A DNA stretch of 64,000 bases, taken from the IMG/VR virus record IMGVR_UViG_3300015050_000902, positions 2,581 through 66,580 of that record; one strand, written 5' to 3'. Position numbers and translations under genes: made by a program. This DNA is from a virus. The notes under the pieces were generated by a model. The model did no database searches, was not told the origin of the DNA, and saw only the letters and a program-made list of their open reading frames with translations. Shown piece after piece: positions 27,159 to 61,928 of this stretch (position 1 is the first letter of the stretch; every line of letters begins with the position of its first letter).

Positions 27159-27169
27159 GGCATGTGGCC

Positions 27170-31374: not shown

Positions 31375-31389
31375 TTAAAGGGTCCTTAA
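31375..31389. promoter_or_regulatory. CtrA box (perfect TTAA-N7-TTAA)
   Basis: ttaaagggtccttaa, about 45 bp upstream of the 31329 start. Confidence 0.7.
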
Positions 31390-42212: not shown

Positions 42213-42227
42213 TTAATCTTTGGTTTA
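42213..42227. promoter_or_regulatory. CtrA-like box (1 mismatch)
   Basis: ttaatctttggttta upstream of the adaptor genes. Confidence 0.45.
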
Positions 42228-42242
42228 CAGACCGAGCAGCGC

Positions 42243-43253
42243 TTAGCTGTTCGGGGTCACCTGCGCCTGGACCAGCGCCTTGCCGTCGACGACCTGATAG
42301 CCGTAGACCTGAAGGCCGCGGAGGATTTGACCGAAGGTCAGCTCCGACCGCAGGGTCTCCACCTTGCTGATCTGCGAGGCGAAGGTCAGTCCGTGGGCAT
42401 GGCCCGCGAAGATCGGCCACTCGCCGGCGTCGAAGTTGGCGGCGTCGGTGCTGTTGTTCGGCAGCAGGTTGGAGATGTAGATCGTGAACCGATCCACCAT
42501 GCCCAGCCGGCCGTTGCGCAGCATCGAGACGCTGTCACCCGACAGGTATGCCTGACGCAGTTCGGACTGTTTGATCATCCGGCCAGCCCACGACGGCATG
42601 ACGACCCAGCGGCCGACTTCCGGAATGTTCTGTTCGTCGAGCACCTGACCCATGCGCATCAGCACGTCCAGGAGTTCGATGTCGCCGACGCCCGGGTTCT
42701 TGGAGACCACGCTGAGCGGGGTACCCTTGACACCGAGGTTGATGTTGCCCGTGATGGCGCCCGCCGAGATGCCGCGGTTGGCCGCGACCATCTGGTTGAC
42801 GATACCATCGAGCACATCGCTGTCGACCGTGATCTTCAGCTGCTGCGCCGCGTCGTCCGACCACATGGAGAGGACGTTCAGATCGCTCTGAATTTCCATC
42901 ACGTCGTCGAGGATCAGCGAGAAGTACTTGCCGTTGCCGATGTACAGCTCGACGGTGCCGCCGGTCGGGCGGTCGAGGCCGAGCAGGCCGTCGGACTTGT
43001 AGTCGTGGATGGTGATCGTCGGCTTCGTGCGGATTTTGACACGATCGCCCTTGTTCTTGATCTCGCCTTCGTAGTCGGTATTCGAGATCGCGGCGAGCAC
43101 GGTGCTCGCGTAGAACTTCTCGACGAGCTTGCCCGACCAGATTTCCGGGATGAAGCCCGTGGTCTGGAGGGAGTTGCCCGAGCTACCTACCGGGTAGATG
43201 GCTGGCGAAGAGCCCGACGTTGCGCCGGGAAAACCTGCTGAGGGAATGGGCAT
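42243..43253 (-). CDS. Major capsid protein (HK97 fold)
   Basis: FIPEIWSGKL...NTDYEGEI...GD.VKI, GRWVVMP, FGQILRGLQVYG; after scaffold, before terminator. Confidence 0.92.
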   Translation of the reverse strand: MPIPSAGFPGATSGSSPAIYPVGSSGNSLQTTGFIPEIWSGKLVEKFYASTVLAAISNTDYEGEIKNKGDRVKIRTKPTITIHDYKSDGLLGLDRPTGGTVELYIGNGKYFSLILDDVMEIQSDLNVLSMWSDDAAQQLKITVDSDVLDGIVNQMVAANRGISAGAITGNINLGVKGTPLSVVSKNPGVGDIELLDVLMRMGQVLDEQNIPEVGRWVVMPSWAGRMIKQSELRQAYLSGDSVSMLRNGRLGMVDRFTIYISNLLPNNSTDAANFDAGEWPIFAGHAHGLTFASQISKVETLRSELTFGQILRGLQVYGYQVVDGKALVQAQVTPNS

Positions 43254-43292
43254 GGCTGAAAGCCCCAATCTGTGGGGCTCGTAAGCCCCGGG

Positions 43293-45361: not shown

Positions 45362-45411
45362 TGGAAAGTCTCCTTGGGAACCTTGGTCGCGTTCACCTAA
45401 GCGCGTGGGGA

Positions 45412-45426
45412 TTAAAAACCCCTTAA
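45412..45426. promoter_or_regulatory. CtrA box (perfect TTAA-N7-TTAA)
   Basis: ttaaaaaccccttaa, about 50 bp upstream of the scaffold/capsid operon. Confidence 0.7.
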
Positions 45427-45986
45427 CGCTTGACCATCAGCAGGCGCTCGGCCTTGTGCGTCGTGAACTCCTCGATCTGCACGCCCTGCGGGAAGTGGCG
45501 ATACATGTGGATCAGATCGTTGTTCGGCACCTTGTAGGGGCAGACGTCCTCGACCGCGTAGACGCCGTCGCGCTTCAGGTAGGGGAACAGATCGCACAGC
45601 AGGTTGAGCTGCGGCAGCGGATCGTGCACGGCGTCGTCAACGATCAGGTCGAAGTCGCCGCCGAACCGCTCGATCACCTCGTGCAGCTGTCCGCTGTTGT
45701 AGGCGTCGCACTGCGCCGTCCGGATGCTCTGCTGGTCGTTGAAGATGAAGCGGTTGTCGTAGTCGATGCCGAAGATCGCCGCGTTCGGGAAATAGTCCCG
45801 CCATGCGAACAGGCTGGCGCCGACGACGTTGTTGGGGATGTCGCGGAAGCCGCAGATGCCGATCTCCAGCACACGCTTCACGTCGAAGCGCTTCTGCTCC
45901 AGATATTTTTCGTAGGCGGCGGTGTAGCCCCAGATGCCTTTGTCGGTACCGTATTTGGTGAATAGGCTTTCGAGATAGGTGTCCAT
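45423..45986 (-). CDS. Class I SAM-dependent methyltransferase (sugar O-methyltransferase-like)
   Basis: KYGTDK, VLEIGI, GASL..WRDYFPNA.IFGID, FDLIVDD..H, GVYAVED. Confidence 0.85.
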   Translation of the reverse strand: MDTYLESLFTKYGTDKGIWGYTAAYEKYLEQKRFDVKRVLEIGICGFRDIPNNVVGASLFAWRDYFPNAAIFGIDYDNRFIFNDQQSIRTAQCDAYNSGQLHEVIERFGGDFDLIVDDAVHDPLPQLNLLCDLFPYLKRDGVYAVEDVCPYKVPNNDLIHMYRHFPQGVQIEEFTTHKAERLLMVKR

Positions 45987-46645
45987 CAGCGTAGCTCCAG
46001 GTTGTCAAACATTGAAACGTTGTGATCGGCCTTGTACCAGTGGAAGGGCAGCTTGTGCTGCGCCTCGACACGGGCCCAGGTGTTCACTTCCCACTCGACG
46101 TTCTTCGTCGACGAGATATGCTTGCGCGCCGCGACACGGCACTCGAAGTCGAGCTGGTCAACCAGCTTGCGCGGAACGGCGAGGACGGAGCCACAAAATC
46201 TCCAGCACGGATAGGCACTCTCAATAGCGACAGGACGCTCTTGCCAGCAGCCGGGCGCGTAGATCGCCTTGTCATCGAGCTTCTCCATGAACTCGTAGAT
46301 GGCTTGGTTGTTGACCCCGGGCAGGCGGAAGATGCCGTAGTCGACCCACACCAGCACGTCGGCGTCGGGGTCTTCGTCCGCAGCCTGCACCAGCCACGAT
46401 GTCTTCTGGTGGTTGACGCAGTGATACACCAGCGAGTTCTTGCTGGGGTTGTCGTGCTCCGACGACTTCGGCGTGAACGGAAGCGTGTTGATGTACTTCG
46501 TCAGCCACAGGTCCTTCGGGTGCATGTAGAAGGCCTTCTTCTGAACGGGGACCCCGCTCAGCTTCTCCCCCAGCTCGCCGTACTCGACGGCGCTGCGGGG
46601 GTGTCCGGGGATGGGTACGTAGCCGGTGACGAGTTTAACCTTCAT
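45986..46645 (-). CDS. HtrL/WlaTC-like glycosyltransferase
   Basis: LVTGY, K...L..A...DP, WVDYGIF, WRFCGSV, EVNTWA, WYKADHN. Confidence 0.7.
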   Translation of the reverse strand: MKVKLVTGYVPIPGHPRSAVEYGELGEKLSGVPVQKKAFYMHPKDLWLTKYINTLPFTPKSSEHDNPSKNSLVYHCVNHQKTSWLVQAADEDPDADVLVWVDYGIFRLPGVNNQAIYEFMEKLDDKAIYAPGCWQERPVAIESAYPCWRFCGSVLAVPRKLVDQLDFECRVAARKHISSTKNVEWEVNTWARVEAQHKLPFHWYKADHNVSMFDNLELR

Positions 46646-48662
46646 GGAATTTCCAGATCATGCGTGAGACTTCTTCGATTGACACGGTCGCCACGTGGGC
46701 TTCCGCATCGCGGACACCGAACGACAAGATCAGATCGTCGCCGTTGGGATGCTTGGCGAGGCCAGCGCAGAACTCGATCTGGCGCTCATAGAACACGAAC
46801 GGCAGGCTGAGCCGGAACAGACGGCCCTCGCCATCGAACCACGCGAAGCGATGCCAGTACGTGCGCTTGTTGTTGGTGGGGTCGTTGGCTGCTTCGTGCA
46901 CCACGGCGAGGTAGCCCGCCTTGAACGGGATCAACTGCGACGAGCCGCTGATCTGGTCAGCTGCCACCTTGATGTCGAACTTCTCGACGGGGGTCTGACG
47001 CGGCAGCGCGCGATCGAGCCCGGCGAACGGAGTGATGATGGTGTCCAGCCGATAGATGAAGCGCTGGTCGTGGAAGTGCATCCAGTTCTTCTCGTTGACC
47101 GAACCCATGTCCACAACCCGCCAGCGGTCAACGCTCATGGTGGGGGTGTCGAGATTGTAGCTCACCGAGCCGATGACCTGCTGGCAGGTCCCCTCGTAGC
47201 TCAGCTCGCGGACGCAGGCGTTGAAGTGAAGCTGGCCGTTGTAGTGCCAGAGCCGGACGTCCTCCAGCCCGATGACCATGTCCCAGGCGGGCTCGGGCCG
47301 GCTCCAGAGCAGCTCGCTCGACTTGTAGACATTCAGGTTGTCGTCGAGTTTTACAATGAAGTTGCGGGTGACGATCGGTGCATCGCCGCACTGCTGCTCG
47401 CCGATCATATAGCGGCCGTGCTCGTCGATCGTGTAGTTGACACAGCGGATGTTGCAGTAGACGTGGTCGGCGAACTGCTCGACCGCTGGGTTCATCGCCG
47501 TGTAGCCTTCCGGCGCGACGAAGTCGAGGCGCTTGCCCTTGAACGACGGGCAATAATGGCTCAGCGGCAGAGTGTACCAGAAGAGGTTCGACCGCGCGCT
47601 CGCGCGGACTTCCGCGTTGCACGTTGGATCGAGCGCGAGATCATCCGTAACCTGGAACGCGCAATTGCGCTCTTTAGGCTCATAGTATCCCGTGACCGAA
47701 TACTCGTAGCGCAGGCCGTGGCTATAAACAAAATCGTTGACAAAGAGGAGGTCATTGGGTCTCGGGATGTTCATGCCGTGCTTGGCATAGAGGTTGGCAA
47801 TGCTGTTCATGCCCTTCTCGCGATAATGCTTCGCGAGGTCGTAGAGTGGCTCCGCCCGGGTTGGTCGGAAGTTGAAGGCATCGTTCAGGCCGGAGACGTA
47901 GGCGCTGTCGAGCCCGCGGTCCTTCCAACAGCCGGCGATCCCCATCATGGCGCTGTGGGTCTCTTCATCCCAGCCGCCGAGGTCGACACGGCGCTGGTAG
48001 GCGGCGATGGCCTCGATCGGCCGACCCCAGTCGCGATAGCTGTTGCCGAGGTAATACCAGTAGCGCCCGTTGTTGGGTTCGCTCCTAAGGCCTTCTTCGA
48101 GCAGTGTCACGTCGCGCTCGAATTTATCGGCACGGTTGGCGCCGTCGGCGTGGTCGATGAAGTGTGCGCCCTTGATCATGCCCTGCGAGGGAATGTCGAT
48201 GTATTCGTGGGTGACGCCGACGTAGGGCGGCTTGCCCCAGGTCAGGTTGACGACGCGGCGGTTGGCGTAGCTCACCACGCCACCCTTCTGGATCATGTCG
48301 TAGGAGGCGTCGGCGCCGGAGAGCCGATGGAAGACCTTGGGGTCCTCGACAACAAGCTCCATGTCAGCGTCCATCATCAGCGCAAACTGGCACCACTGCA
48401 GCTGGCCCTTGCCGTTGCGGTTCTGCGCCAGCTCGAACGCATCGTTGCGCGCCTGGGAGAAATTCTCGAACGTGCCGACGACGATCTCGTAGGGCACGCC
48501 GTCGTCCTGGCACAGGCGTTTGATCTTGTTGATGGTGTCGTCGGTCGATCCGGTATCGAGGATCACCACTGACTTGACGTAGGGCAGGACAGACAGAAGG
48601 CAGCGGTCAATGCGCGCGGCCTCGTTCTTGACAATCATGTTCAAGCAGAGCGATGGCTTCAT
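46635..48662 (-). CDS. Glycosyltransferase family 2 with TPR and C-terminal beta-propeller (GH130-like) domain
   Basis: LNMIVKNE, DTGSTD, F...RN, DAD, GVTHE; TPR RYWYYLGNSY and RAEPLY; propeller NP, EDVR, EKNW, IEFCAGL. Confidence 0.9.
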   Translation of the reverse strand: MKPSLCLNMIVKNEAARIDRCLLSVLPYVKSVVILDTGSTDDTINKIKRLCQDDGVPYEIVVGTFENFSQARNDAFELAQNRNGKGQLQWCQFALMMDADMELVVEDPKVFHRLSGADASYDMIQKGGVVSYANRRVVNLTWGKPPYVGVTHEYIDIPSQGMIKGAHFIDHADGANRADKFERDVTLLEEGLRSEPNNGRYWYYLGNSYRDWGRPIEAIAAYQRRVDLGGWDEETHSAMMGIAGCWKDRGLDSAYVSGLNDAFNFRPTRAEPLYDLAKHYREKGMNSIANLYAKHGMNIPRPNDLLFVNDFVYSHGLRYEYSVTGYYEPKERNCAFQVTDDLALDPTCNAEVRASARSNLFWYTLPLSHYCPSFKGKRLDFVAPEGYTAMNPAVEQFADHVYCNIRCVNYTIDEHGRYMIGEQQCGDAPIVTRNFIVKLDDNLNVYKSSELLWSRPEPAWDMVIGLEDVRLWHYNGQLHFNACVRELSYEGTCQQVIGSVSYNLDTPTMSVDRWRVVDMGSVNEKNWMHFHDQRFIYRLDTIITPFAGLDRALPRQTPVEKFDIKVAADQISGSSQLIPFKAGYLAVVHEAANDPTNNKRTYWHRFAWFDGEGRLFRLSLPFVFYERQIEFCAGLAKHPNGDDLILSFGVRDAEAHVATVSIEEVSRMIWKFHEG

Positions 48663-49836: not shown

Positions 49837-50871
49837 TTAACCCCAGGGGTTGAAGCCGGACGGAGCGGCGTTGACGAACGGCGCCGCGGTGTCGATCGTG
49901 ACGTTGCCGGTGTTCTGGACGAAGGCCAGCGGGAAGATCGCGGTCGCACCGCCGACGGACGACGTGATCGCGATGCCGCCGGTGCCGGTGGCCGGGTTGG
50001 CCGTGCCGCTGGCGTTCCAGTTGCCTGCATCGTACCTGAACCACATCAGGCGCGCGTCGAGGTCGATCGCGACACCGACCACCTTGCCTGAGGGCACGCT
50101 ACCCATGTTGCCGCCGCCGTTGGCGATGCCGCCCCAGTTGAGGACGGTCATCGAGTTCGCCTGCGAATTGTCGTTCAGGGTGTAGCTGGAGTTACCGACG
50201 CCGCAGGCGCCGTTGTTGTTGAACAGGACGGTCGGAAACTCGAAATAGTACTTGCCCGTGGTGTGGGACAGCGTGCCGCGGCAGCCGTAGTTGCCCGCGC
50301 CGCCACCGTTGAAGGTGAGGTCGGAGTTCGTCAGCGTCGAGCCCGTCGTCTTGTCCGCAGAGTTCCAGGTCGATGGCGGTGCCGCGTAGGTGAACAGGCC
50401 CGTGCCCGTGCCGGAGCCGGCCGGGGTCGTGACGACGACGTCGGTCGCGCCCGCAGCGTGGGCGGGGGACGTCGCAGTGATGGTGGTGTCGTTCACCACG
50501 GTGATGCCGGTCGCGGCGCTGCCGCCGATGGTCACTGCCGTGGCGCCGGTGAAGTTCTCGCCCGTGATGGTGACGGACGTGCCGCCGGCAGTCGTGCCGC
50601 CGGTGGGGTCGATGCTGAGCACGACGGGCGGCAGCGCGCCGCCACCGTAGCCGTCAATGATGATCGTCGGCAGCCCAGCGATCCCGGTACCCGCGAAGCA
50701 GACCGTGGCGAACGTCCCGGTCGGGCCGCTGGCGCCGGTCGGGCCAGTGATCTGGGCGAACGTGGGAAAGCGGCCGTAGTCGATGCCGGTCGGGCCGGTC
50801 GACAGGATGTTGACGTTCTTGAACAGGCCGGTCGGGCCCGTGGGTCCGTCGAGGACAAATACCGACTTCAT
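49837..50871 (-). CDS. Virion decoration protein: short GPT repeats, IPT/TIG domain, SPRY/concanavalin-like domain
   Basis: P.V.SI.P..G...GGT.VTITG.NF (IPT); TWN.ADK, GKYYFE, VGVAIDLD...WF (SPRY-like). Confidence 0.8.
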   Translation of the reverse strand: MKSVFVLDGPTGPTGLFKNVNILSTGPTGIDYGRFPTFAQITGPTGASGPTGTFATVCFAGTGIAGLPTIIIDGYGGGALPPVVLSIDPTGGTTAGGTSVTITGENFTGATAVTIGGSAATGITVVNDTTITATSPAHAAGATDVVVTTPAGSGTGTGLFTYAAPPSTWNSADKTTGSTLTNSDLTFNGGGAGNYGCRGTLSHTTGKYYFEFPTVLFNNNGACGVGNSSYTLNDNSQANSMTVLNWGGIANGGGNMGSVPSGKVVGVAIDLDARLMWFRYDAGNWNASGTANPATGTGGIAITSSVGGATAIFPLAFVQNTGNVTIDTAAPFVNAAPSGFNPWG

Positions 50872-53189
50872 CCGACGCCTCCGCTAACCGGCTTCGCGCC
50901 GGACCCAGGCTGGACGCCGGTGAGGTGGGTCTGCGGCCCCATGCTATTCGACAGCTGGCTGGGCTGCGAGCCCTGGGCCTGCTTGGCGCGTTCCTCGGTG
51001 CCATCCTGCGGGTGTTGTCCACCCAGGTCCATGTCCGGGTTGTTGGTGGTCGACGTGCCGCCGGGGTTCTGCTGCTGCATGCCCGGGCGTTCCGGATAGC
51101 CGTCCGGCATCTGCGCGCGAGCAGCGAGCGCACCTTCGGTGAGCTGGCTGGTGATCTTCTTGACACCGCTCTCGACGCCCTGCGCCACCGCCTTCTGGAC
51201 GGCTTGGTCGATCGCACCCTGGCCGGAGGCGGCCGCCTTCTTGTCGGCTTCGACCATGCGGTCAATCATATCCTCGGGCGGGACGATCTCCTCGCCGGGC
51301 ATGCCGATCGTGGTCGAGACCGAGCGCAGGATCACGGAGCGCCCCTTGATGCCCATGATCTTCTGGTCGGTCGGGTTGTTGGTCGCGGTCAGGAACTCGA
51401 TCTGGCGCTGGCGGAGCGTCTCGCGCTGGATCGCGACGTTGACACCCTGCACGGTCAGGCGCTCGTTGCCGGTCAGCAGTCCGCTCTCATCGGTGAGGAG
51501 GAGCAGGTCCTGCAGCTGCAGCATCGAGCCTTCGATGATGTCGCGGTCAATGTTCGCCGACACCGTCTGCAAAATCTTCGACGCGTTGCCCATCAGCATC
51601 GCGAGGCCGGACGCAGTTCGACCCGCGCCGCCGCCACCGGAGCCACCGACATACTTCGGGATGGCTGAGACGTCGTCGGCAATCGAGACAAACTCCTGAT
51701 AGACCGCGATCAGCTGCTGCGCGTTCGAGGCCGGCATGAAGAAGCTGATGGGCTGCTTGCCCGAGCTGGTCATCGGATCGTTCCGGACGTGCCAACGCTT
51801 CCATGGGTACATGTCCTCGCCGTTTTCCTCCGGCGCCAGCATGTCGTCATTGACGACGACCTGGGGGCCCGAAGCGATGGCAATGTTGTTGATCAGCGCG
51901 CGCAGCGTTGCGTTCGCGCTCTCCTGGAGATCGGTGAGCAGATCGGTGAGGCCGTTGCCTACTGGTGTCCCCGGCACCTTCTCGAACGAAGTAATAAAAT
52001 AAGGGTGGCGCTGTCGCGGTGAAGGCGACATGTGACACTTGATGACGTGGCTTCCGACGACCCATACCTGCACGTGGTAATCGCGCAGCTCGTCGGGAAC
52101 AGGCATTCCATAATCCTGCAGAATGCGGCCCTGAACATTGCCGTTGAACTCCATCATCGAGATCATGCCGGAGCGGTTCCAGGCCGGGTTCTCCCGGTTC
52201 TCCAGCACGCTGCGCTCGGCGTCGGTGGTGTCCCAGTTGTCGTAGAGACCGCCGCGGCCATACTCATCGAGCACAGCCCTGATCTCGGCGGTGTTGTAGC
52301 CGGGCAGGTCGAGCAGATCGTTCAGCTCGGCGCGAGTGACGCGCAGCTTCTCGATCACATTTGCGTTTTCGATGTCCGCGACGCCGGGCGTGAACCACAG
52401 GTCGAACGGACTGACCCGGTTCCAGGTCAGCGTCGGGGTCTGCTTGATCGACGGCTGTCCGCCTCCGGGCGGCCACTGCACCGACGGGATCACCTTGACG
52501 ACGGGACCCTTGATGCAGGCGAACGGGAAGATGGTAAGGTCCACGAGGAACTCGGCGAGCGCGTGATAGTAGCCGCCCTTGTTCAGCATGTCCTGGATTT
52601 TGTCGCCGCTCGTGCGGGCCTGATCGGTGGCCTTGCGCTTGGCCGCGTCGGTGGCCTGCTCCATGAGCATGCGCTTGCGCTCGGACAGATCGCCGGGCGA
52701 CGGCGGCTGACCCAGCTTCTGGGCGACCTGCATGGCCTCCGCTTTGACCAGCGCCTCGATCTTGGCGATGATCTCGGGCGGCACCTCGGGGTTCTTCTCG
52801 GGCTGCAACGACCACGGGATGTCCTGCCCCAGGTAGATGTCGCGGAGCAGCGACGTCGCGGCGCGGCACTTCTGCGCGATCAGCCGGGCGAAGACGGTCG
52901 AGCCGCCCTGCTTGGTGATGTCAGCGAGCTTGGTCGGATCATACTGGCCGTTGAATGAGCGCAACGCGGCGAGCATGCGGTTGCTCCAGCCGGCCTGCGT
53001 GTTGCGGTGGTTCCGGAAAATCTCGAACTGGCCTTTGACGTAGCCGGCGAGCTGCGGGTAGGCGGGCTGCGCGGACATCGTCGCCGCCTGCGCGGCCGCG
53101 GCTTTCTGCGACGCAGCTTCTGCCAGCTGCTTCTCCAGTTCGGCTGGACCGGTGAACTGGATGACGCCGTTTTGTCCGAGGTCTGCCAT
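50868..53189 (-). CDS. Portal protein
   Basis: 773 aa after terminase; RVSPFD, ASGPQV, P.K.W, GAGRTASGLAMLM. Confidence 0.9.
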   Translation of the reverse strand: MADLGQNGVIQFTGPAELEKQLAEAASQKAAAAQAATMSAQPAYPQLAGYVKGQFEIFRNHRNTQAGWSNRMLAALRSFNGQYDPTKLADITKQGGSTVFARLIAQKCRAATSLLRDIYLGQDIPWSLQPEKNPEVPPEIIAKIEALVKAEAMQVAQKLGQPPSPGDLSERKRMLMEQATDAAKRKATDQARTSGDKIQDMLNKGGYYHALAEFLVDLTIFPFACIKGPVVKVIPSVQWPPGGGQPSIKQTPTLTWNRVSPFDLWFTPGVADIENANVIEKLRVTRAELNDLLDLPGYNTAEIRAVLDEYGRGGLYDNWDTTDAERSVLENRENPAWNRSGMISMMEFNGNVQGRILQDYGMPVPDELRDYHVQVWVVGSHVIKCHMSPSPRQRHPYFITSFEKVPGTPVGNGLTDLLTDLQESANATLRALINNIAIASGPQVVVNDDMLAPEENGEDMYPWKRWHVRNDPMTSSGKQPISFFMPASNAQQLIAVYQEFVSIADDVSAIPKYVGGSGGGGAGRTASGLAMLMGNASKILQTVSANIDRDIIEGSMLQLQDLLLLTDESGLLTGNERLTVQGVNVAIQRETLRQRQIEFLTATNNPTDQKIMGIKGRSVILRSVSTTIGMPGEEIVPPEDMIDRMVEADKKAAASGQGAIDQAVQKAVAQGVESGVKKITSQLTEGALAARAQMPDGYPERPGMQQQNPGGTSTTNNPDMDLGGQHPQDGTEERAKQAQGSQPSQLSNSMGPQTHLTGVQPGSGAKPVSGGVG

Positions 53190-53238: not shown

Positions 53239-53253
53239 CTAAAAACTCCTTAA
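53239..53253. promoter_or_regulatory. CtrA-like box (1 mismatch) in the portal/holin divergent region
   Basis: ctaaaaactccttaa plus an extra GTTAAC half-site near 53264. Confidence 0.55.
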
Positions 53254-53313
53254 CGACGGAAACGTTAACCTCTTGCTGGCATCACTGGAGGCCTCAAACG
53301 GGAGTGCGGGTCA

Positions 53314-53601
53314 GTGGAACAGAACGTCAGCAGCACCATCAACCAGTGGGTCGGAAACATCTTTTCGGCCGGCGCAATCGTGTCCACCGCGATGGGGTGG
53401 CTGCCGGCTATCGCCGCGGCGATGGGCGGTCTGTGGTACCTGATCCAGATTTACGAGAGTGCAACCGTACAACGTTGGGTGGCCACTCGGCGCATCCGTA
53501 AAATTGCGCGGATGAAGGCTCGGGTGATGATGCTAGAAGCACGTCACCGGGCGCCTCTGCGGGGGCTCGATCCTCTCGACGACGGGCCGGATGCGCCTTA
53601 G
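53314..53601 (+). CDS. Holin-like small membrane protein, antisense to the late arm
   Basis: GGAG RBS; hydrophobic helices then Arg/Lys-rich tail; fills the gap between terminase and portal. Confidence 0.6.
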   Translation: MEQNVSSTINQWVGNIFSAGAIVSTAMGWLPAIAAAMGGLWYLIQIYESATVQRWVATRRIRKIARMKARVMMLEARHRAPLRGLDPLDDGPDAP

Positions 53602-55052
53602 GTCCATCCATTCGCTGAAACGGCACCACGTTTCTTCGTGCGCGGGCGGAGCCGGCGCGTGATCTCAGGCACAATGCCACCATGCACGACAAGAGCAACA
53701 TACTGAAGATCGTCGGCGACATGTGAGAACCCTTCCTTGTCGTTCTTCTCGGGCACGGTCTTGAGCGCCCCCGACTTGAATTTCGTGAAGCGATAGCCGC
53801 CCGACATGGCGCGGCAGAGGTGCGGTGCGCCGGTGCGTGAGATGATCAGGCTCGGCCCGCCGTTGGTCTGACGCCCCAGCAGATGCTCGACGGCGCGCAG
53901 CCGCGGCTCGATGTCGTTGGTCGGCGCCGGGAACGCCGGCAAGCCCATGCGCTGGAGCGCGTCGATGCAGCTCTCCTCGCCGATGGAGCCCTTCGCCACG
54001 CCGCTCGGATCGCCGACGCAGCAGACCTTGTAGCCGATGAACCGGTTCGAGTAGAGCACCGGCCGCAGGTTCTGCTCGACGTGCTTCTCCAGGCCGACGT
54101 TGGTGCCCGGGACTTCCTGATGCACGATCAGGCGCCCCATGTGATCCATCTGACAGATCAGCGACCACGGGTTGCGGCCGAAGTCCTGTCCGATGAGGAG
54201 GGGGTATCCGGGAATAAGCAGAGTGTCCTGGACAATGTGGAAGTCGGACTTGAATGTGTTTTTGAAAACTGCCGCGCCAGACGGATCATCGCCATACTCA
54301 GCCTTGACATATCGGCGGACCCAGTCGCTGTCCTCACCGTACATCTCAACGAAGCGCTCATAATACTTTCGGCCCTGCGCAAGGCGTGCCGGGTGATCAA
54401 TGGGCAGCTTGATGGTGTCTTCATTCTGCACCAGCCAGTTCAGGTTCTCGGCGTCGAAGGCAAGCCCGGAGGGCTGCTTAAAAATCTGCACGTCCATCGG
54501 AGGGTTCTCCATGTACGTGTGCCACGGCGTCATCTCGGTCGGGAAGTTCGTGTCGGCGATGAAGCCGTGCCATGACGGCGTACCCTGAGCGCCGGAGGGA
54601 TAGCGGCCCAAGCGACCAGAGATAGGAGCAACAACGTCCAGGTCCATCTCAATACATTCCGAGAGCCACGCTCCAGTGAGCTGCATGGACAGCAGCCGGG
54701 CTTGGTCCTCAGAATTCTCCAGAGGGATAAACACCCACTCGGATCGCACATCGTCGAACTCCACGTGGAACGTGTTCTCGGACACCTTCCAATACCCGAG
54801 GCTGCCGAGCCAGCTTTGGCAGTCCTTGAGCACGGTGTCCTTCAATTGCTTCAGGGTCTGGCGCACGACGGCGTGCCGCGTGTAGCGATAGCCGTCGGCA
54901 GCGCGCGACTGCCCGAGCGATCGGCGCAGCAGCTCGATGACGGCAGCGGTGGTCTTGCCGGAGCCGACAGGCCCGGCGATCAGGCGGCCGAACGCCTCGC
55001 TCTTCATGAAGCGAGCGCAGGTCGGCGGCGCTGCGTAATTGAGGTCAGGCAT
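53598..55052 (-). CDS. terL: Terminase large subunit
   Basis: GPVGSGKT, LTGAWLSE, GRYPS, DTN, GQDFG, SHVADDLQY. Confidence 0.93.
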   Translation of the reverse strand: MPDLNYAAPPTCARFMKSEAFGRLIAGPVGSGKTTAAVIELLRRSLGQSRAADGYRYTRHAVVRQTLKQLKDTVLKDCQSWLGSLGYWKVSENTFHVEFDDVRSEWVFIPLENSEDQARLLSMQLTGAWLSECIEMDLDVVAPISGRLGRYPSGAQGTPSWHGFIADTNFPTEMTPWHTYMENPPMDVQIFKQPSGLAFDAENLNWLVQNEDTIKLPIDHPARLAQGRKYYERFVEMYGEDSDWVRRYVKAEYGDDPSGAAVFKNTFKSDFHIVQDTLLIPGYPLLIGQDFGRNPWSLICQMDHMGRLIVHQEVPGTNVGLEKHVEQNLRPVLYSNRFIGYKVCCVGDPSGVAKGSIGEESCIDALQRMGLPAFPAPTNDIEPRLRAVEHLLGRQTNGGPSLIISRTGAPHLCRAMSGGYRFTKFKSGALKTVPEKNDKEGFSHVADDLQYVALVVHGGIVPEITRRLRPRTKKRGAVSANGWT

Positions 55053-55182
55053 CTTCACCCTCGTCGTTGTCGGGCACGCGGAGCATGGGCTTCTCGCACG
55101 CCTCACACCAAGGGATGGAGCGGAGCATTGACGGATGCTCCTTCACCTCACCGCAGTCGTTGCAGATATACAGGTCAAGCAT
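55045..55182 (-). CDS. 45-aa zinc-ribbon protein (below ORF-track cutoff)
   Basis: YICNDCGE...WCEACEKPM; overlaps both neighbours. Confidence 0.6.
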   Translation of the reverse strand: MLDLYICNDCGEVKEHPSMLRSIPWCEACEKPMLRVPDNDEGEDA

Positions 55183-56514: not shown

Positions 56515-57171
56515 TTATCCGTCCGGGAGTAGCGCGCGACCGACAGCAGGTTGAGGAGGTAGACTTTGAGGCGCATTTGCCGTGACGGTAATTTTCTGGT
56601 CTGCGCCAAGGTCAATGTTAATAGAGAAGCGTTCGCCTGGAGCAGCCGCGCCGTCTTTTCGCTCACCAACGTCGGCGATTTTTGCAAAGAGCTTAGCAGC
56701 TTCGATGACGCCTGGGAGCCCTTCGCCCTTGTTCTGCATACGCGCGCCGAGACCGAGTAGACTGTCTTCGAGGATAGCGGCGGCCTCGACTTTAATTCTA
56801 TCTTGAGTTGATAGTGGGGCGTGCCACTCTTTGCAGGCGGCGGCGAACGTTTCGCGGAAGAAGTCGTTGTGGACCTTGAGGAACTCGAACTGCGCGTTGT
56901 CAAGTTTGAACTCCTTGAGGATGACCGCCTCTTCCTTGATGTCCATCGCCAGCTCGCGGGCCAGCTTCGCCAGCTCGGGCCATGTCAGCGCCGGCAGCTG
57001 GACGAGCGCCTTCGCCGCCTGAACGCCAGCAGGCGTCAACCCCCCAGGAGGGAGAGCTTCGGGTTCAGGCGGCGCTGGGTCCGGAATTACCGTGGCGGTA
57101 ACAGGCCCGTCGGGGTCATAGACCTCGCCGGCGAGCACGTCGCCAAAGCCTGTGTCGATGATCTCGGTCAA
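56515..57171 (-). CDS. terS: Putative terminase small subunit
   Basis: TTG start overlapping the upstream TGA; helical protein with C-terminal FSINIDLG strand, upstream of terL. Confidence 0.6.
   Translation of the reverse strand: MTEIIDTGFGDVLAGEVYDPDGPVTATVIPDPAPPEPEALPPGGLTPAGVQAAKALVQLPALTWPELAKLARELAMDIKEEAVILKEFKLDNAQFEFLKVHNDFFRETFAAACKEWHAPLSTQDRIKVEAAAILEDSLLGLGARMQNKGEGLPGVIEAAKLFAKIADVGERKDGAAAPGERFSINIDLGADQKITVTANAPQSLPPQPAVGRALLPDG
56577..56591. repeat. Palindrome variant (1 mismatch, in CDS)
   Basis: ttgccgtgacggtaa. Confidence 0.7.
57087..57101. repeat. TTACCGYNRCGGTAA palindrome (in CDS)
   Basis: ttaccgtggcggtaa. Confidence 0.9.
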
Positions 57172-57539
57172 TGGACTTTGTCCTTGCTGGTCGGACACTG
57201 CCGCAGCTGCTGCACGAGCGAGGCGACTTCCTGGGCCTGCTTCTGGACCAGCGCGGTGATCCCCTCGCGCGCCTTGTCGAACGCGTTCTGGTCGAGCACG
57301 CCGTTGATGTAGACCTGATTGATGTTGTTGAGCAGCCAGAGCTTGGCGCACTGCGCATAGAGCCCTACGCAGGCCGCGGCCGCGCCGGTGAACTGGTCGC
57401 GCACGACGCTGCGGTCGTAGACATCCGCGAGCGCCTGGACGGCGCCGGCCTGGGTCGCTTCGATGAACTCGGTGCTGCCGTCGGCGGGAGCGCTGAGCAG
57501 GCGCAGGATGAAGTCTTCGTCGAGCACGGGGTCAGACAT
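57168..57539 (-). CDS. Hypothetical protein
   Basis: 123-aa coupled ORF. Confidence 0.6.
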   Translation of the reverse strand: MSDPVLDEDFILRLLSAPADGSTEFIEATQAGAVQALADVYDRSVVRDQFTGAAAACVGLYAQCAKLWLLNNINQVYINGVLDQNAFDKAREGITALVQKQAQEVASLVQQLRQCPTSKDKVH

Positions 57540-58098
57540 TGGCGGGGTCCGCGCTGCTGGAGAGAAGCCCGATCGCGATGTCGCGGGAGCGGGCGGAGAT
57601 CAGATAGCCGAGCCCCCACATGGTCTCGATGTGAATGTCGTGGGGCTTGAGCTTCTTGCGCAGCTTGCAGATCATGACGTCGACCATCTTGACGTCGGTC
57701 TCGTCGCGCGCGGGATCGCCGGGCCGGTTCTGTTCGATGACGTGGTGGAGTTGTTGCTTGGTGACTTCGTTCCGCTTCAGCATCGCGGCGAGCATGACAG
57801 CTTCGAGCGGCGAGCATTTGAAGAAGCGGGCACAGGCGCATTTGAGGGCGTTGTCATCTTCGAGCGGTGAGCCGTTGAAGGGACTGCGCTGGTGTCGCGT
57901 TGTGCCGGGTGGCCAGTCGTCCTTCGGCAGTTCGAGGATGGTACCGGCCTGGACTGCTTCCTTGAAGAGTTCGTATAGGTCAGCTGAGGGGATGTGCAGC
58001 GATCGAGCGATGGCGCGTACTGGGATGCCTTCGTCAGCGAGGCGGACGGCGATGGCGGTGGGGGATGGGGCGGGCTCGACGGCTGCGATCGCGTTCAT
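57532..58098 (-). CDS. Transcription regulator: N-terminal HTH plus CtrA-like OmpR/PhoB winged helix, no receiver domain
   Basis: KMVDVMICKLRKKL...HIETMWGLGY resembles the CtrA DNA-binding segment (KIIDVFICKLRKKL...IETVWGRGY, from memory). Confidence 0.85.
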   Translation of the reverse strand: MNAIAAVEPAPSPTAIAVRLADEGIPVRAIARSLHIPSADLYELFKEAVQAGTILELPKDDWPPGTTRHQRSPFNGSPLEDDNALKCACARFFKCSPLEAVMLAAMLKRNEVTKQQLHHVIEQNRPGDPARDETDVKMVDVMICKLRKKLKPHDIHIETMWGLGYLISARSRDIAIGLLSSSADPANV

Positions 58099-58209
58099 GC
58101 TGGGCTCCGAATGCGTGGGGAGCCTGTGGCTTCAGCCCCCCGGTAACCACAGCGTCTTTGCTCGAACCTGTCGCGCGCAGCCATGCCGTCCGGGTAATAG
58201 GCACGAACC

Positions 58210-58224
58210 TTAACGCGATGTCAA
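58210..58224. promoter_or_regulatory. CtrA-like box (1 mismatch) upstream of the CtrA-like gene
   Basis: ttaacgcgatgtcaa. Confidence 0.45.
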
Positions 58225-58546
58225 CGGCTTCGCGCAGCGGCGCTTGGCGATCCGGATCAACCACTCGGGAGCACCGCGTGATCGCGCGCCCTCCTCGATC
58301 TGCGCGTCGCTATAGCCCTGGCCACGATAGTGGTTGACCAGTGGACACGCGTTCGTGAGGCTCCAGGTCAGGACGATCGCGAGCATCATTGATCAACACC
58401 TTGTGATGGGTAGGTGACGGCGCCGTCACGGAGACGTGAAGTAGGCCCGCCAGCACACCCCCAACGGTGTCGCTTGGTGCCGGAACGGCGAAGCGACGCG
58501 GCCGGCGGGCCCGCGAGAAATAAAGCACGCGCGCGTTAACGAGGAC

Positions 58547-58681
58547 TTACTGGTCCTTCCAGGGGCCGCGGCCGTGCCGACGCTTCTGCTGGTCGTAGTT
58601 GTCCCAGAGCAGCGCGAGCACGAGGATGATGGCGCCGGCGATCAGCTGGCCCGTGGCGTATTCGGTGACAAGGTTCCGCAT
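58547..58681 (-). CDS. 44-aa single-pass membrane protein
   Basis: MRNLVTEYATGQLIAGAIILVLALLW... Confidence 0.45.
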   Translation of the reverse strand: MRNLVTEYATGQLIAGAIILVLALLWDNYDQQKRRHGRGPWKDQ

Positions 58682-58872
58682 TGGGGTCCAGCCTCGATCT
58701 CAAGGTAGCGTGGTCACAAACTCTTGAACGAACAGTTTACGGCACGGGCGGTTGCCCCGGTGCCCCCCGAGGGCGACCCCCAACCGAAAGGAGCAGCGCC
58801 AAATGGCCCTACCTCCCGAGAATGAGCCATCAAGCCCAGACCCACCACGCTGAGGTCCGGCAGGGTGCTGTC

Positions 58873-59100
58873 CTAGGACAGCACCCACCGCAGCGCGCCA
58901 AGCAGGACGGCTCCCGCGGCATTGGCGCCCACGACGGTCACCACGACGGCAAGCACCCGGCAGCGGATCGGTTCGAGCTTCTTGTCGTCGACGAAGGTAT
59001 CGGCCAGCCCGAGCGCGGCGCCGGCGACCGCCACCAAGGCAGCGTTCGCGAGCGCGAAGTAGAAGGCGGCAATGGGGAACCAGTCAGGTTGGAAGCGCAT
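58873..59100 (-). CDS. Small membrane protein
   Basis: Two hydrophobic segments; AGGA RBS. Confidence 0.55.
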   Translation of the reverse strand: MRFQPDWFPIAAFYFALANAALVAVAGAALGLADTFVDDKKLEPIRCRVLAVVVTVVGANAAGAVLLGALRWVLS

Positions 59101-59103
59101 GGC

Positions 59104-59367
59104 CTATCCTTCCGCGATGTCTTTGAGGGTGGCGTCGGCGCAGTCGGCCGCGAGCCAAGCGCAGTTCCAGGCCATCGTCGTGTTGTCCTTCTTCGACACC
59201 GGCGCCGCCGGCTTCGGTCTGTAAAGGTCGATGTCCTTGCGCAGGGTGGTGAAGGTCTTGTTGAAGGTGCCGCGGGCGACGATCGACCATTTGCGCCATT
59301 GCCTGGGAGGGACCCGGTACATGTTGCGGGTGAACGGAAAATCTTTTGCATCGCTTTCGACGGACAT
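59104..59367 (-). CDS. Hypothetical protein
   Basis: 87 aa; GGAG upstream. Confidence 0.6.
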   Translation of the reverse strand: MSVESDAKDFPFTRNMYRVPPRQWRKWSIVARGTFNKTFTTLRKDIDLYRPKPAAPVSKKDNTTMAWNCAWLAADCADATLKDIAEG

Positions 59368-59394
59368 CCTGAGTGCTCCAGGGTGGGAGAGAAA

Positions 59395-59409
59395 TTACCG
59401 TGGCGGTAA
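59395..59409. repeat. TTACCGYNRCGGTAA palindrome (intergenic)
   Basis: ttaccgtggcggtaa. Confidence 0.9.
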
Positions 59410-59608
59410 ATCATGATCGCACTATGCGACCGTGAGGGGAATTTGGCCTTCCCACCTTAACAAAAGGTAAATATACCTTTTTACCCCCTATATATTCCGG
59501 GCTGCGGTCTCGCGAAGCGAGACAAGGGGGCCCGGTCCAAGCACCCCGGGGGATGCAAGGAACGGGCGGGAGAAGGTGCCCTTGCCGCGTCGGGCAAGGG
59601 CGATCTCG

Positions 59609-59782
59609 TTAGATGGTGGCGTTCAGGCTCACCTTGACGTCACCGAAACCGGTGAAGCCTGACGTGGTGGCAAGCACTTTCGTCTTGCCCGACTTGGAGG
59701 GCTGCGCCTGCTCCTTGGCCTTCGCGCTGATGTCGATGGTCAGAACCAGCGTATCGCCCTTGATCTCGCCTTTGACGTTCAT
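59609..59782 (-). CDS. 57-aa beta-rich basic protein, possibly nucleic-acid binding (below ORF-track cutoff)
   Basis: MNVKGEIKGDTLVLTID...PSKSGKTKVLATT.G; GAGGAG RBS; followed by a GC hairpin at 59578-59601. Confidence 0.7.
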   Translation of the reverse strand: MNVKGEIKGDTLVLTIDISAKAKEQAQPSKSGKTKVLATTSGFTGFGDVKVSLNATI

Positions 59783-59959
59783 GGTACACTCCTCAGTGTG
59801 GCGTCGAACCGGGATGGTCGACTGCCCTCGCCGCGTCGGGCAAACGGCGCCGATCGGCCCCTTCGGGGCAACGCGCGTTCTTCACATCCGGGCGCGCGAG
59901 GGGCTCGCAAGGTGCAAGGGTGGGCCTGCCCAGGCAGGAGAGTTCGCTCCTAATCCCGT

Positions 59960-60560
59960 TTGAAGGTATCAAGGTAGTACCTTGCTATGCGTGGTTCGCA
60001 TGGCTATGTGGTAATTAGGTAGCGACGTTTACCCTTTGTTTAATACCCAAGGCTACTGGCGCCGGACCAATTGCGTGCCAGTTAACTGGTCAATTCTTGG
60101 ACCGATTTAACCTTTTGATCTTGCAAGAGAATTGGGTTAATTGGTCAATTGGCACGCTTTTTCACGGGGTGTGGTGGACTATGAGACGTCATTCTAATAA
60201 ACCCTTAACGCGGGGAGCGCATGGGTCGTTCGGCAGGCTAATTGGCCTATTGGCAAGAAAACAAGGTAAACACTATAGATTTAAAATTTGCGTCGAAAAA
60301 ACATAGACATAAATTGACCAAACCAGCGTTTACCCTTTTTAAAGATGACGTCCACGTTAAGGGTTTGTTTAAATGACGTTTCATGTGGGGTACCCCGAAA
60401 AAGGCGTGCCAATTGGACCAATTAGACCAATTACATTTTTGCAACACCTGTCGAGCGGCCTCCAGCCACAGCAATTCTGCCGGCCCTCAAGCCGTTCATC
60501 TTGTATACCACAAATCGTGGACCAATTAGATTGAGCGTGCCAATTACACGAACGCAGCGT
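59960..60560. promoter_or_regulatory. AT-rich divergent control region, candidate origin or genome end
   Basis: Most AT-rich long stretch; imperfect inverted repeat 60131-60212 / 60353-60432; CCAATT iterations; CtrA-like boxes at 60029, 60194, 60357. Confidence 0.65.
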
Positions 60561-60826
60561 GAACGATCACGGCGACGTTATCAGCGAGGCGCTGCCTTCG
60601 CAGCGCCGGAACTCCGTGTGTCTGCCACCAGATCGTATCCGGTCCAGGCCGGCAGGACTGCCTCCTAAGCGCAGGCTTTGCCGATGTTGGCTGCCGATGT
60701 TCCCACCACCCGCGGGCGATGGCTCTGCGCGCGCGAGGGCCGCCCGACGCGGCGATTGCGGGCCGCGCCCCGTTCCACTACAGGACGGCGTGTTTGAGCC
60801 CGATCAGGTTGCTGAGGAGCACCACA

Positions 60827-61066
60827 ATGACGTCATTCACCAGAGCACTCTACCGCCGCGATCCAGCTGCAGCTGAGGCGTTCCATCGTCAACGCACGTT
60901 CGAGCAGCAGTCTGCACACGGCAGGCCCGGCACGCTGAGCAAGACTGTCGGCTTCGGCAGGCGAACGCCCACCGGCGTCGTGGGCTGCGCCACGCTGTGC
61001 GACCACCCGGGCTGTGCGCAGGGCTGCACCCTCGCTGGCCGTCGTGAAGCGTTCCTCTGGGAGTGA
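60827..61066 (+). CDS. Small Cys-containing early protein
   Basis: CTGAGGAG RBS; C...C.HPGC...C. Confidence 0.55.
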   Translation: MTSFTRALYRRDPAAAEAFHRQRTFEQQSAHGRPGTLSKTVGFGRRTPTGVVGCATLCDHPGCAQGCTLAGRREAFLWE

Positions 61067-61350
61067 GCACGATGCGCACCGGGTTCCAACAGGTTACCGC
61101 CACGGTAACACCAGCCAAACGACCCAAATGGTCGTTCAATGTGCTGGCGGTCGTGCGCAGCCTCGAAGGTACCAAGGTGGAGGTGTTCGATGACTACACC
61201 TTCGCCCAGCGCTGGACACAAGCGTTCGGCGGCGGCACTGTCTGGCCGCGGGACGTTGTGGCCGACTACACCTCGACCAGCGTGACGCTGAAGAGCGGCA
61301 TCGAGATGGTCGAGCCCACGATCGAGCCCTACCAGCTCGAACTGATCTGA
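61063..61350 (+). CDS. Early protein ending in QLELI
   Basis: GTGA overlap; 95 aa. Confidence 0.6.
   Translation: MSTMRTGFQQVTATVTPAKRPKWSFNVLAVVRSLEGTKVEVFDDYTFAQRWTQAFGGGTVWPRDVVADYTSTSVTLKSGIEMVEPTIEPYQLELI
61094..61108. repeat. TTACCGYNRCGGTAA palindrome (in CDS)
   Basis: gttaccgccacggtaac. Confidence 0.9.
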
Positions 61351-61376
61351 ACCCCCAACCACTGAGGAGTGAGACC

Positions 61377-61928
61377 ATGAACGTTGAGAGACTGAGGCAG
61401 CTGGCCAACCTGTTGCGGGCCGATGCTATCAACCCTACCGGCGTCAAGTTTGATCTGGGCGTCTGGGCGTCGCCATGTGCGAGCATCGCTCAGGGCTTCG
61501 AGTTCGACGACACCGTGGACCTGTCGAACTGGCGCGAGATGAAGGGGCCCGAGACGAAGAAGATCGAGATGTCGTGCAACACGTTTGCATGTGCACTCGG
61601 GCTGGCTGCGCTCGACCCTGAGTTCCAGAAGCAGGGCCTGAGCTACACCTTCCTGCCGACCCATCGTGACAACCACCAGGGCACGATGATGCCGATCTAC
61701 GCCGGCCAGACCGGCTGGGACGGCGGTGCGCTGTTCTTCGACATCAGCACCGCGGATGCCCGCTACTTCTTCGACCCGGAGTGCTACGACGGCACACCGC
61801 GCCATGCCGAGGGCGAGCTGTTCGTTGCCGAGCGCATCGAGAACTTCATCGAAGGCAAGATCGACCGTGAGCTGCACCCCGCGTTCTACGACGACGACGA
61901 CGGCGACGACGACTACGACAACGACTGA
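61377..61928 (+). CDS. Early hypothetical protein with acidic tail
   Basis: GAGGAG RBS; MNVERL..LA..L, FDL..W, C.T.ACALG.A motif common in phage early proteins. Confidence 0.75.
   Translation: MNVERLRQLANLLRADAINPTGVKFDLGVWASPCASIAQGFEFDDTVDLSNWREMKGPETKKIEMSCNTFACALGLAALDPEFQKQGLSYTFLPTHRDNHQGTMMPIYAGQTGWDGGALFFDISTADARYFFDPECYDGTPRHAEGELFVAERIENFIEGKIDRELHPAFYDDDDGDDDYDND

Follow-up and report, generated by a model that had tools for sequence, protein, structure and literature searches.

A receiver-less CtrA-like regulator of uncultured phages and a conserved CtrA-type box upstream of their portal gene

Introduction

CtrA is the master switch of the alphaproteobacterial cell cycle, and phages of Alphaproteobacteria are known to respond to it through CtrA boxes. 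Here we analyse a viral gene whose product resembles the DNA-binding part of CtrA and lacks its receiver domain. The gene is the open reading frame (ORF) 57532..58098 on the minus strand of a 64,000-nucleotide stretch of DNA (hereafter the window), C1:2581-66580 of the one-contig, 66,580-bp virus record IMGVR_UViG_3300015050_000902 in IMG/VR; the window is nearly the whole of a phage genome of ~66 kb. We refer to the 188-residue product as the regulator. A sequence-only reading of this DNA had presented it as a CtrA mimic or competitor at the head of the late genes.

Some of the closest described systems rely on the host protein. Several alphaproteobacterial phages contain sites to which host CtrA binds (Mascolo 2022, PMC9437464), and phage Jorvik depends on host ctrA, with a CtrA site located between the operons for packaging and for structural proteins (PMC10589892). 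A single CtrA site at the -35 position is a common layout of CtrA-activated promoters (PMC11264516). Brevundimonas phage Delta, the phiCbK-like phages and Jorvik (the 'lytic deferment' model) have CtrA boxes in regulatory regions, as does the phage described here, and the location of the Jorvik site is that of the box that we find before the portal gene. These phages use host CtrA, and no CtrA-like protein of their own has been reported, whereas the clade studied here encodes one.

Phage-encoded relatives have been noticed in roseophages. Two papers (Hynes 2016, PMC5026251; Fogg 2019, PMC6363796) remark, without taking the point further there, that an ORF of roseophage RDJLphi1 resembles the activator part of CtrA without the receiver. 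The 'CzcR-like response regulator' of RDJLphi1 and RDJL3 and proteins of Rhodobacter capsulatus phages (RcLkye gp59) are, like the regulator, phage-encoded and receiver-less with a CtrA-type winged helix, the roseophage-type domain being 35% identical to that of the regulator over 92 columns. The RDJL3 protein consists of DUF6456, Trans_reg_C and a C-terminal helix-turn-helix (HTH), and RcLkye gp59 of DUF6456 and Trans_reg_C; DUF6456 is GafA-type (Sherlock and Fogg 2022, PMC9638019). In the regulator, by contrast, the HTH comes first and DUF6456 (PF20057) has no match, nor is that family among the top 25 for 38 N-terminal domains of its relatives, so that the two proteins share modules in permuted order. 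The HTH_23-like module of RDJL3 (EGMPMREIARN) resembles EGIPVRAIARS of the regulator, although weakly (hhalign probability 51%, E 1.5e-4). The regulator family belongs to a different, ~66-kb phage lineage from RDJL3 and RcLkye, and the regulator is a new domain arrangement, in a new lineage, of a kind already glimpsed in roseophages.

Results

A conserved family of receiver-less proteins

The ORF is a real gene, conserved along its full length. Its start codon follows a GGAG placed 6 nt upstream, and its translation includes DEGIPVRAIARSL close to the N-terminus and DVKMVDVMICKLRKKLKPHDIHIETMWGLGY close to the C-terminus. The family comprises 303 proteins (E<=1e-3) drawn from 698 candidates of 103-329 aa; among the 120 matches listed of these 303, identity to the regulator is 53-100% over 85-100% of the query, and many family members lie on contigs of 63-69 kb. 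Alignment of 36 members yielded 38 invariant columns. They include E23, G24, P26, I30, A31 and R32, linker residues P58, D61, W62 and P63 and, in the C-terminal half, K137/V139/D140/V141/I143/C144/R147/K148/K149...I157/T159/W161/G162/G164/Y165. A chance ORF is ruled out by the 303 matches, the near-full-length identity and the presence of invariant columns in both halves. IMG/VR holds 160 relatives, from which we retrieved 80 loci at 37-63% identity. Loci of relatives, designated by L-numbers (L006, L084 and so on), extend only 10 kb beyond the regulator.

Pfam Trans_reg_C (PF00486) matches the regulator with 30.9 bits against a gathering score of 26.2, covering residues 129-166 and positions 39-76 only of the 77-position profile. 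The same family is precomputed in 119 of the 120 listed relatives, some of which cover the full profile (L006, for example, matches positions 5-77 of 77 with 49 bits). No Response_reg match was found in the 188 residues by Pfam search, even at E<=10. HTH_23 is matched weakly at residues 16-37, and PHROGs returned weak matches to 'transcriptional regulator' families.

Predicted domain architecture

The AlphaFold2 model of the regulator (predicted local distance difference test, pLDDT, 88.3; predicted template-modelling score, pTM, 0.70) consists of an N-terminal three-helix HTH, a linker, a winged helix of the OmpR/CtrA type and a C-terminal helix. Confidence drops in the linker after the N-terminal helix bundle. 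The linker is nevertheless invariant at P49, D52, W53 and P54 in the numbering of a 38-sequence alignment of N-terminal domains, the same columns as in the 36-member alignment.

The winged helix is modelled as an extra helix (82-93), helix 1 (97-108), a strand (111-113), helix 2 (114-123), a recognition helix (137-153) and a wing formed by the hairpin of strands 157-160 and 164-167. The best Foldseek matches in the PDB are all DNA-binding domains of the OmpR/PhoB type (SaeR, ArlR, AdeR, ToxR, PhoP, PhoB and OmpR), with probabilities of 0.99-1.0 over 74-81 columns, root-mean-square deviations of 2.0-3.2 for the top ten and E about 1e-2; a sequence profile search of the PDB likewise found generic OmpR-type domains only, the best being ArlR (6.5e-5). 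The four-stranded beta-sheet that precedes helix 1 in OmpR-type proteins is absent from the model, helix 82-93 standing in its place, and the CtrA beta-sheet region aligns opposite unrelated regulator sequence. Compared with CtrA, then, the regulator is devoid of the receiver with its phospho-acceptor and of this beta-sheet, and adds the N-terminal HTH and the C-terminal helix. The latter is a possible dimerisation element; for a domain without a receiver, this helix and the HTH are the candidates for that role.

The N-terminal module is a generic HTH. Modelled separately it reached pLDDT 96, and Pfam searches with 38 such domains matched HTH_23 in 18 and HTH_7 in 17. Foldseek returned no match for it at E<=1e-3. 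By VIA-align, the top match (Z 6.1) is the DNA-binding domain of Tn3 resolvase, and Lrp/AsnC, DeoR, TrpR, small-terminase, GcrA and sigma region-4 domains lie within about one Z unit. We considered and rejected a GafA module (hhalign against a GafA homologue, probability 0.8%), and a GcrA or sigma region-4 module is not favoured either: VIA-align gave ties at Z 5-6 across many HTH classes, the GcrA domain 5yiu scored Z about 5.3, tied with many folds, and hhalign against a GcrA-like protein gave a probability of 0.4%.

The winged helix is closest to CtrA

In NCBIfam searches with the regulator, the CtrA model (NF045991) scored best at 33.4 bits, well below its equivalog cut-off of 350 bits, followed by TctD at 28.1 bits. 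All 36 aligned members match the CtrA model, and no other family reaches so low a best E-value (2.6e-9 versus 1.5e-7 for TctD). Across the whole domain, the regulator is identical to CtrA in 27-31 of 91 columns versus 19-20 of 89-91 for generic paralogues. In helix 3 and the wing (residues 132-165), identity to a Novosphingobium CtrA is 62% (34 residues, 37 aligned columns), and the two share the motif K-x-VDV-x-ICKLRKKL...IET-x-WG-x-GY.

In CtrA, T168/T170 act as a determinant of promoter choice (Delaby et al. 2019, PMC6847485). These residues align to E111/T113 of the regulator, in which T170/K171 are kept as T113/K114, both nearly invariant across the family; the numbering was carried over from a 231-aa Mesorhizobium CtrA with T at 168 and 170.

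A scan of one genome per species found 148 relatives, and the best 80 of these, almost all alphaproteobacterial, fall into three classes: two-domain proteins (L001-L017), short receiver-less proteins of 111-181 aa (L018-L030, L034 and L044) and true CtrA with a receiver (most of L031-L080). Because the scan patterns were derived from the query, this list favours proteins with the shared helix 3 motif, and we therefore placed every Trans_reg_C match of three alphaproteobacterial genomes (18 from Mesorhizobium, 9 from Devosia and 13 from Enterovirga) in a domain tree. Its 225 sequences were reduced to 201 distinct, to 135 at 80% identity and to 104 rows once the phage family had been thinned at 62%; L190 and ten matches that lack loci were not included. 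In this tree, 21 generic OmpR paralogues form a clade at 100/100 (stem 0.73) to which neither the CtrA orthologues nor any receiver-less protein belongs. The CtrA orthologues come together at 98/55, and the two-domain proteins form a clade at 98/92 adjoining the short receiver-less proteins.

A comparison that needs no rooting was made by BLAST against 35 host OmpR-type domains of the same three genomes (3 from CtrA and 32 others; two receiver-less proteins, a 269-aa CtrA-like protein of L032 and two unrecovered domains were omitted). CtrA was the best match for 77 of 95 distinct family domains, with a median margin of 6.5 bits, and the window's regulator scored 42.7 bits to CtrA versus 30.8 to the best other domain. 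Judged by sequence, the winged helix is closer to CtrA than to other OmpR-family paralogues, with 17 of the 95 domains preferring one other protein.

The sequence-only reading is borne out in part by these results. It had described a phage-encoded regulator without a receiver but with an additional HTH-like segment, and both the profile searches and the structural model agree. It had also named grouping with generic OmpR regulators as the outcome that would speak against it, and the regulator domain falls outside that clade. Its match to the recognition helix and wing of CtrA holds as well, although 'established' was too strong a word for it at that stage.

Relatives in prophage early operons

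Small proteins (111-181 aa) that consist of the CtrA domain alone, with no receiver, occur in Bosea, Brevundimonas, Methylosinus, Methylobacterium, Ancylobacter, Devosia and others. They share with the regulator the CtrA-type helix 3 and wing, the absence of a receiver and the helix that replaces the beta-sheet, but are without the N-terminal HTH and keep Phe in helix 3. Their neighbours in prophage early operons are methyltransferase, ParB-like and primase genes. We examined eight bacterial loci, four with two-domain and four with short proteins. All lie among prophage early genes, with CI-like repressors, CII-like activators, methyltransferases, ParB-like proteins, primases, helicases or replication initiators. 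In the Enterovirga aerilata prophage (L006 5522-7094), the two-domain gene is located between a DnaA-domain-IV-like ORF (Bac_DnaA_C, 59 bits) and a GcrA-like ORF (63 bits); this trio is followed by a helicase, a Holliday-junction resolvase and a replication initiator, and a CI-like repressor lies upstream.

A conserved position between packaging genes and the control region

Of the genes leading up to the packaging and structural genes, the regulator is the first that is widely conserved (Table 1). Five small ORFs precede it on the same strand (59609..59782, 59104..59367, 58873..59100, 58547..58681 and 58210..58389), and the earlier placement 'at the head of the late arm' therefore applies to conserved genes rather than to every ORF. 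Among 26 loci with a length of 17 kb or more, 25 have the regulator upstream of portal and at a distance of 1.2-3.5 kb from TerL; the one exception is L146, an Enterovirga-type prophage.

Such constant proximity to TerL could mean that the regulator is a small-terminase-like DNA-recognition subunit of the packaging machinery, and its HTH does resemble the small-terminase HTH 4xvn (Z 5.5, tied with many classes). We consider this highly improbable. In a divergent subgroup, g56515, exo and TerL are inverted as a unit and the regulator is left behind in its place; bacterial relatives sit in prophage early or replication operons rather than beside terminases, and the oligomerisation core of small terminases is not seen in the model. 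Since the g56515 block moves with TerL while the regulator stays, g56515 is the better small-terminase candidate.

A CtrA-type box upstream of the portal gene

We searched for CtrA-type boxes, defined as TTAA-N7-TTAA with at most one mismatch; CGTTAAGG is a frequent core. The window has such a box upstream of the portal gene, and in the four closest relatives a -10-like GTTAT(A/G) element follows 18 nt after it. Of 24 distinct relatives, 21 have a box in the 160 nt before the portal gene, compared with a mean of 1.58 and a maximum of 7 in 500 dinucleotide shuffles, and in 20 of the 24 the box begins between -75 and -45. In two control windows placed farther upstream, none of the 24 had one. 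The portal box is present in both synteny types, which have different neighbouring genes and flanks that cannot be aligned. In a related Rhizobium phage that has no regulator there is no box before the portal gene and no enrichment (3 versus 3.6 expected), an observation on one lineage only.

A second core upstream of the portal box has equivalents in L084, L085 and L094. It faces a 95-aa ORF on the opposite strand between TerL and portal, and the portal promoter region is therefore divergent. The product of this ORF appears hydrophobic, and its start codon and Shine-Dalgarno sequence are conserved in relatives.

Across the 24 loci, boxes cluster in three places, namely the portal promoter, the stretch immediately before the regulator, and the control region. 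Upstream of the regulator, a box occurs within 150 nt in 9 of 24 loci (shuffles 0.53) and within 500 nt in 13 (shuffles 1.74). The control region of the window is locally enriched, with 4 boxes versus 0.46, a count reached by none of 300 shuffles; in control regions generally, exact TTAA-N7-TTAA occurs 0-1 times per segment. GTTAAGG is present in 11 copies in the window, where about 5 are expected; the nine copies that lie between genes all have the same orientation as transcription. Five copies form good boxes, namely those at the portal gene, at 31389..31375 and 45426..45412 and in the control-region inverted pair. The box upstream of the ORF starting at 45396 is the weakest, as it overlaps the upstream stop codon and a short GGGG/CCCC hairpin. 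Two further matches in the late arm were rejected as boxes: the TTAA match at 42213 is a terminator after the capsid gene, and the GTTAAGG core at 49258 is a stop codon with a Shine-Dalgarno sequence. A sigma-70 consensus scan of 57000-61500 found no promoter-like sites, this consensus being uninformative for alphaproteobacterial promoters.

Who reads the boxes?

We favour, with somewhat better than even confidence, a reading in which the regulator is a phosphorylation-independent activator of phage promoters whose CtrA-lineage winged helix binds CtrA-type boxes. The receiver and N-terminal beta-sheet would have been swapped for a small HTH, the rigid PxDDWPPG linker and a helix. Having no receiver, the protein would be beyond the control of the host CckA-ChpT-CtrA phosphorelay and active once made. 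It would bind TTAA-N7-TTAR boxes overlapping the -35 element of phage promoters, with the portal/structural operon promoter as its main target and its own upstream region and the divergent control region as others. Host RNA polymerase would be recruited as by CtrA at class II promoters, and middle and late genes could thus be switched on at any stage of the host cell cycle. Such a scheme may include a relay, in which host CtrA acts first at the control-region and pre-regulator boxes and the phage copy afterwards. The positionally conserved box before the portal gene lends indirect support to late-gene activation, which the sequence-only reading had proposed; activation itself we infer.

Several observations weigh against this reading. 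The domain tree is unrooted, and in it a 97/94 branch sets CtrA and the generic paralogues apart from the receiver-less group, with CtrA between the two. Whether the domain is 'CtrA-derived' therefore depends on where the root lies within the generic OmpR family; a root among the generic paralogues, as descent from CtrA needs, is reasonable. In the BLAST comparison, a 456-aa non-CtrA Mesorhizobium protein (L203) outscored CtrA for the 17 domains mentioned above, and another protein did so for one. One helix 3 position is Phe in CtrA and Met, Ile, Leu or Val in the phage family; by analogy with PhoB we take this position to contact bases, and with the Phe replaced, specificity may differ from that of CtrA. 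The boxes themselves are not uniformly distributed. The portal regions of L088, L100 and L138 have none, and the 24-locus total of 157 is only 1.8 times the 85.7 +/- 8.5 of local-composition shuffles. Of the AT-rich control regions of 14 phages, only 4 are enriched and 6 have no box (total 20 versus 10.6, one mismatch). Among the window's five best boxes, two share bases with the stop codon of the gene before them, and one coincides in part with a hairpin; as several boxes overlap an upstream TAA stop, not all need be functional.

A further objection concerns the protein that reads the boxes. Host CtrA could read the same sites, as it does in other alphaproteobacterial phages (PMC9437464, PMC10589892); Jorvik, with its ctrA requirement, has its site in the equivalent place. 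In this alternative, to which we give about one chance in four, CtrA~P times phage expression ('lytic deferment') and the phage protein is an antagonist or a host-directed factor. It would compete for boxes on the phage genome or on the host genome (origin, flagellar, pilus and division genes), with the outcome that early promoters are shut off or the host cell cycle is rewired or arrested. Some boxes indeed precede the regulator or lie in the early control region, at sites for which no phage protein is available when infection begins, and the prophage relatives lie in early operons, the DnaA-domain-IV-like and GcrA-like neighbours in Enterovirga suggesting a module that mimics the host cell cycle. 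What this alternative leaves unexplained is that the clade keeps both the regulator and a fixed portal box, the regulator-less relative being without the box. Also against it, the regulator retains the full activator-type helix 2, helix 3 and wing together with the T170-equivalent residue. The two readings are compatible, as the programme could be started by host CtrA and locked in by the phage protein.

The palindrome and the iterons

The window also abounds in a 15-bp palindrome, TTACCG-YNR-CGGTAA. At up to two mismatches the genome has 23 sites, and the window has 21 where 0.32 are expected; they span 2221-61108 (for example 2221, 5697, 9440, 16183, 21793 and 59395). They lie mostly inside genes, some between, and are denser in the replication arm; at least 9 are situated 13-40 nt upstream of a gene start. 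Relatives have the same motif, variants of it (TTACGG in L086; TTACTG in L090, L092 and L093) or none, and about half of the loci of at least 14 kb are without it, yet keep the regulator. In the Rhizobium phage RHph_TM3_14A (L197 10660-10690), a GTTACC-N6-GGTAAC palindrome occupies a 58-nt gap from portal to the divergent gene before TerL, and recalls the TTACC/GGTAA half-sites of the window's palindrome.

The AT-rich control region between the two arms is probably the origin together with divergent early promoters. It consists of AATTGG(T/C) repeat arrays with a period of about 9 bp and of an inverted repeat of ~65 bp, each arm of which begins with a CGTTAAGGGTTT box, so that the plus-strand box is an inverted copy of the minus-strand one with ~65 nt of similar flank. 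Most of 16 relatives checked have an equivalent AT-rich segment 2-3.5 kb upstream of the regulator, with differing iterons (AAATGTCC, AAGTGTCC and AAATGGTGGGG).

Palindrome and iterons bear on another alternative, namely that the CtrA-like fold serves a different target, the iterons or the palindrome, perhaps through the N-terminal HTH, and that the TTAA boxes are not its sites. The palindrome shares the 15-bp geometry of the CtrA box (TTAC-N7-GTAA), its abundance is far above expectation, and in L148 it lies 3 nt upstream of the portal box. The changed specificity position of helix 3 would fit as well, and both the iterons and the recognition helix of the N-terminal HTH vary. We nonetheless regard this alternative as improbable. 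L088, L086 and L130 all have KM(V/I)DV(I/V)ICHLRK(K/R)L in helix 3, and relatives of this type carry TTACCG, TTACGG or no palindrome; its presence and variants covary with neither recognition helix, and its mostly intragenic sites are unlike operators. We accordingly reject the palindrome as the regulator's target, and with it the suggestion of the sequence-only reading that the extra HTH might recognise it, since many relatives keep the same helices with a variant palindrome or none. A correlation of Tyr42/Arg with the palindrome tracks phylogeny and is broken by L148 and L116. The control-region iterons were rejected as a target on similar grounds, as they differ between phages with an identical helix 3 (AATTGGTCC in the window versus AAATGTCC in L084).

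Table 1. Regulator, neighbouring genes and candidate regulatory sites in the window
Feature	Position	Strand	Remarks
Regulator gene	57532..58098	minus	188 aa, ATG start; N-terminal HTH, PxDDWPPG linker, CtrA-type winged helix, C-terminal helix
N-terminal three-helix HTH	57946..58062	minus	residues 13-51; helices 13-22, 27-34 and 38-51 (model)
Linker motif P58-x-x-D61-W62-P63 (PKDDWPPG)	57904..57927	minus	invariant in 36 sequences
OmpR/CtrA-type winged helix	57598..57855	minus	residues 82-167
C-terminal helix	57550..57594	minus	residues 169-183 (model); R172 invariant, L179 nearly invariant
g56515	56515..57351		likelier small-terminase candidate
TerL	53598..55106	minus	minus-strand arm
Portal	50868..53189	minus	minus-strand arm
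Capsid	42243..43268	minus	minus-strand arm
Portal box TTAAGGAGTTTTTAG	53239..53253	minus	starts 64 nt upstream of portal start 53189; candidate late promoter operator
Second GTTAAC core	53262..53270		15 nt (start to start) upstream of portal box; faces divergent ORF 53314..53601(+)
Exact box TTAAGGACCCTTTAA	31375..31389	minus	starts 60 nt upstream of structural gene start 31329; first TAA is the stop codon of the upstream gene
Exact box TTAAGGGGTTTTTAA	45412..45426	minus	upstream of ORF starting at 45396
One-mismatch box TTGACATCGCGTTAA	58210..58224	minus	CGTTAAGG core; starts 126 nt upstream of regulator start
Box TTAAGGGTTTATTAG	60194..60208	minus	AT-rich control region; points into minus-strand arm
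Box TTAAGGGTTTGTTTA	60357..60371	plus	control region; points into plus-strand replication arm
AT-rich control region	59980..60560		between the two arms; AATTGG-type iterons

Other features of the phage genome

By TerL, the closest cultured relatives are Rhizobium phages of the RHph_TM3_14A group (49.5% identity). A plus-strand replication arm at ~1-21 kb holds a family A DNA polymerase, a helicase, a primase, exonucleases and nucleotide-modification genes, and converges with the minus-strand structural arm, which runs from 58.1 to 21.8 kb and further holds tail fibres, an internal virion protein and a giant protein of 1798 aa. A cluster at 157-879, 957-2129, 3481-4794 and 8526-9426 suggests DNA base modification; its genes encode Nmad5, an ATPase, a DUF2201 metallopeptidase/VWA protein, a deoxyribosyltransferase-like protein and a dATP/dGTP diphosphohydrolase N-domain. 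The giant virion-type protein (21822-27218) has a lysozyme-like segment at residues about 490-650, and a 675-aa glycosyltransferase-TPR protein adjoins a methyltransferase-like gene in the structural arm (45423-48662).

Discussion

New here is the conserved CtrA-type box upstream of the portal gene, a candidate operator at the head of the structural genes. Our search of the openly accessible literature turned up the brief remarks on RDJLphi1 only; neither the regulator family nor the short prophage proteins nor the portal box was described there.

A more ambitious picture, which we offer as speculation and think rather unlikely as a whole, is a self-contained phage CtrA circuit. Host CtrA~P would license the control-region and pre-regulator boxes, and the phage copy would then take over, lock in expression from the portal promoter and occupy host CtrA sites (origin, division and motility), freezing the host cell cycle. 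The short and two-domain prophage relatives would in that case belong to a widespread viral toolkit of cell-cycle regulator mimics in Alphaproteobacteria. If such a circuit is real, infection would proceed only in the right cell type.

The finding draws together scattered remarks on CtrA-like ORFs in roseophages and on gene-transfer-agent regulation. The regulator would provide a putative natural, constitutively active CtrA DNA-binding module, useful for dissecting promoter recognition by CtrA. A large clade of uncultured phages has a CtrA head without the switch and a fixed box before the structural genes, and thereby offers a concrete, testable case of a virus that may have copied the master regulator of its host to escape or take over host signalling.

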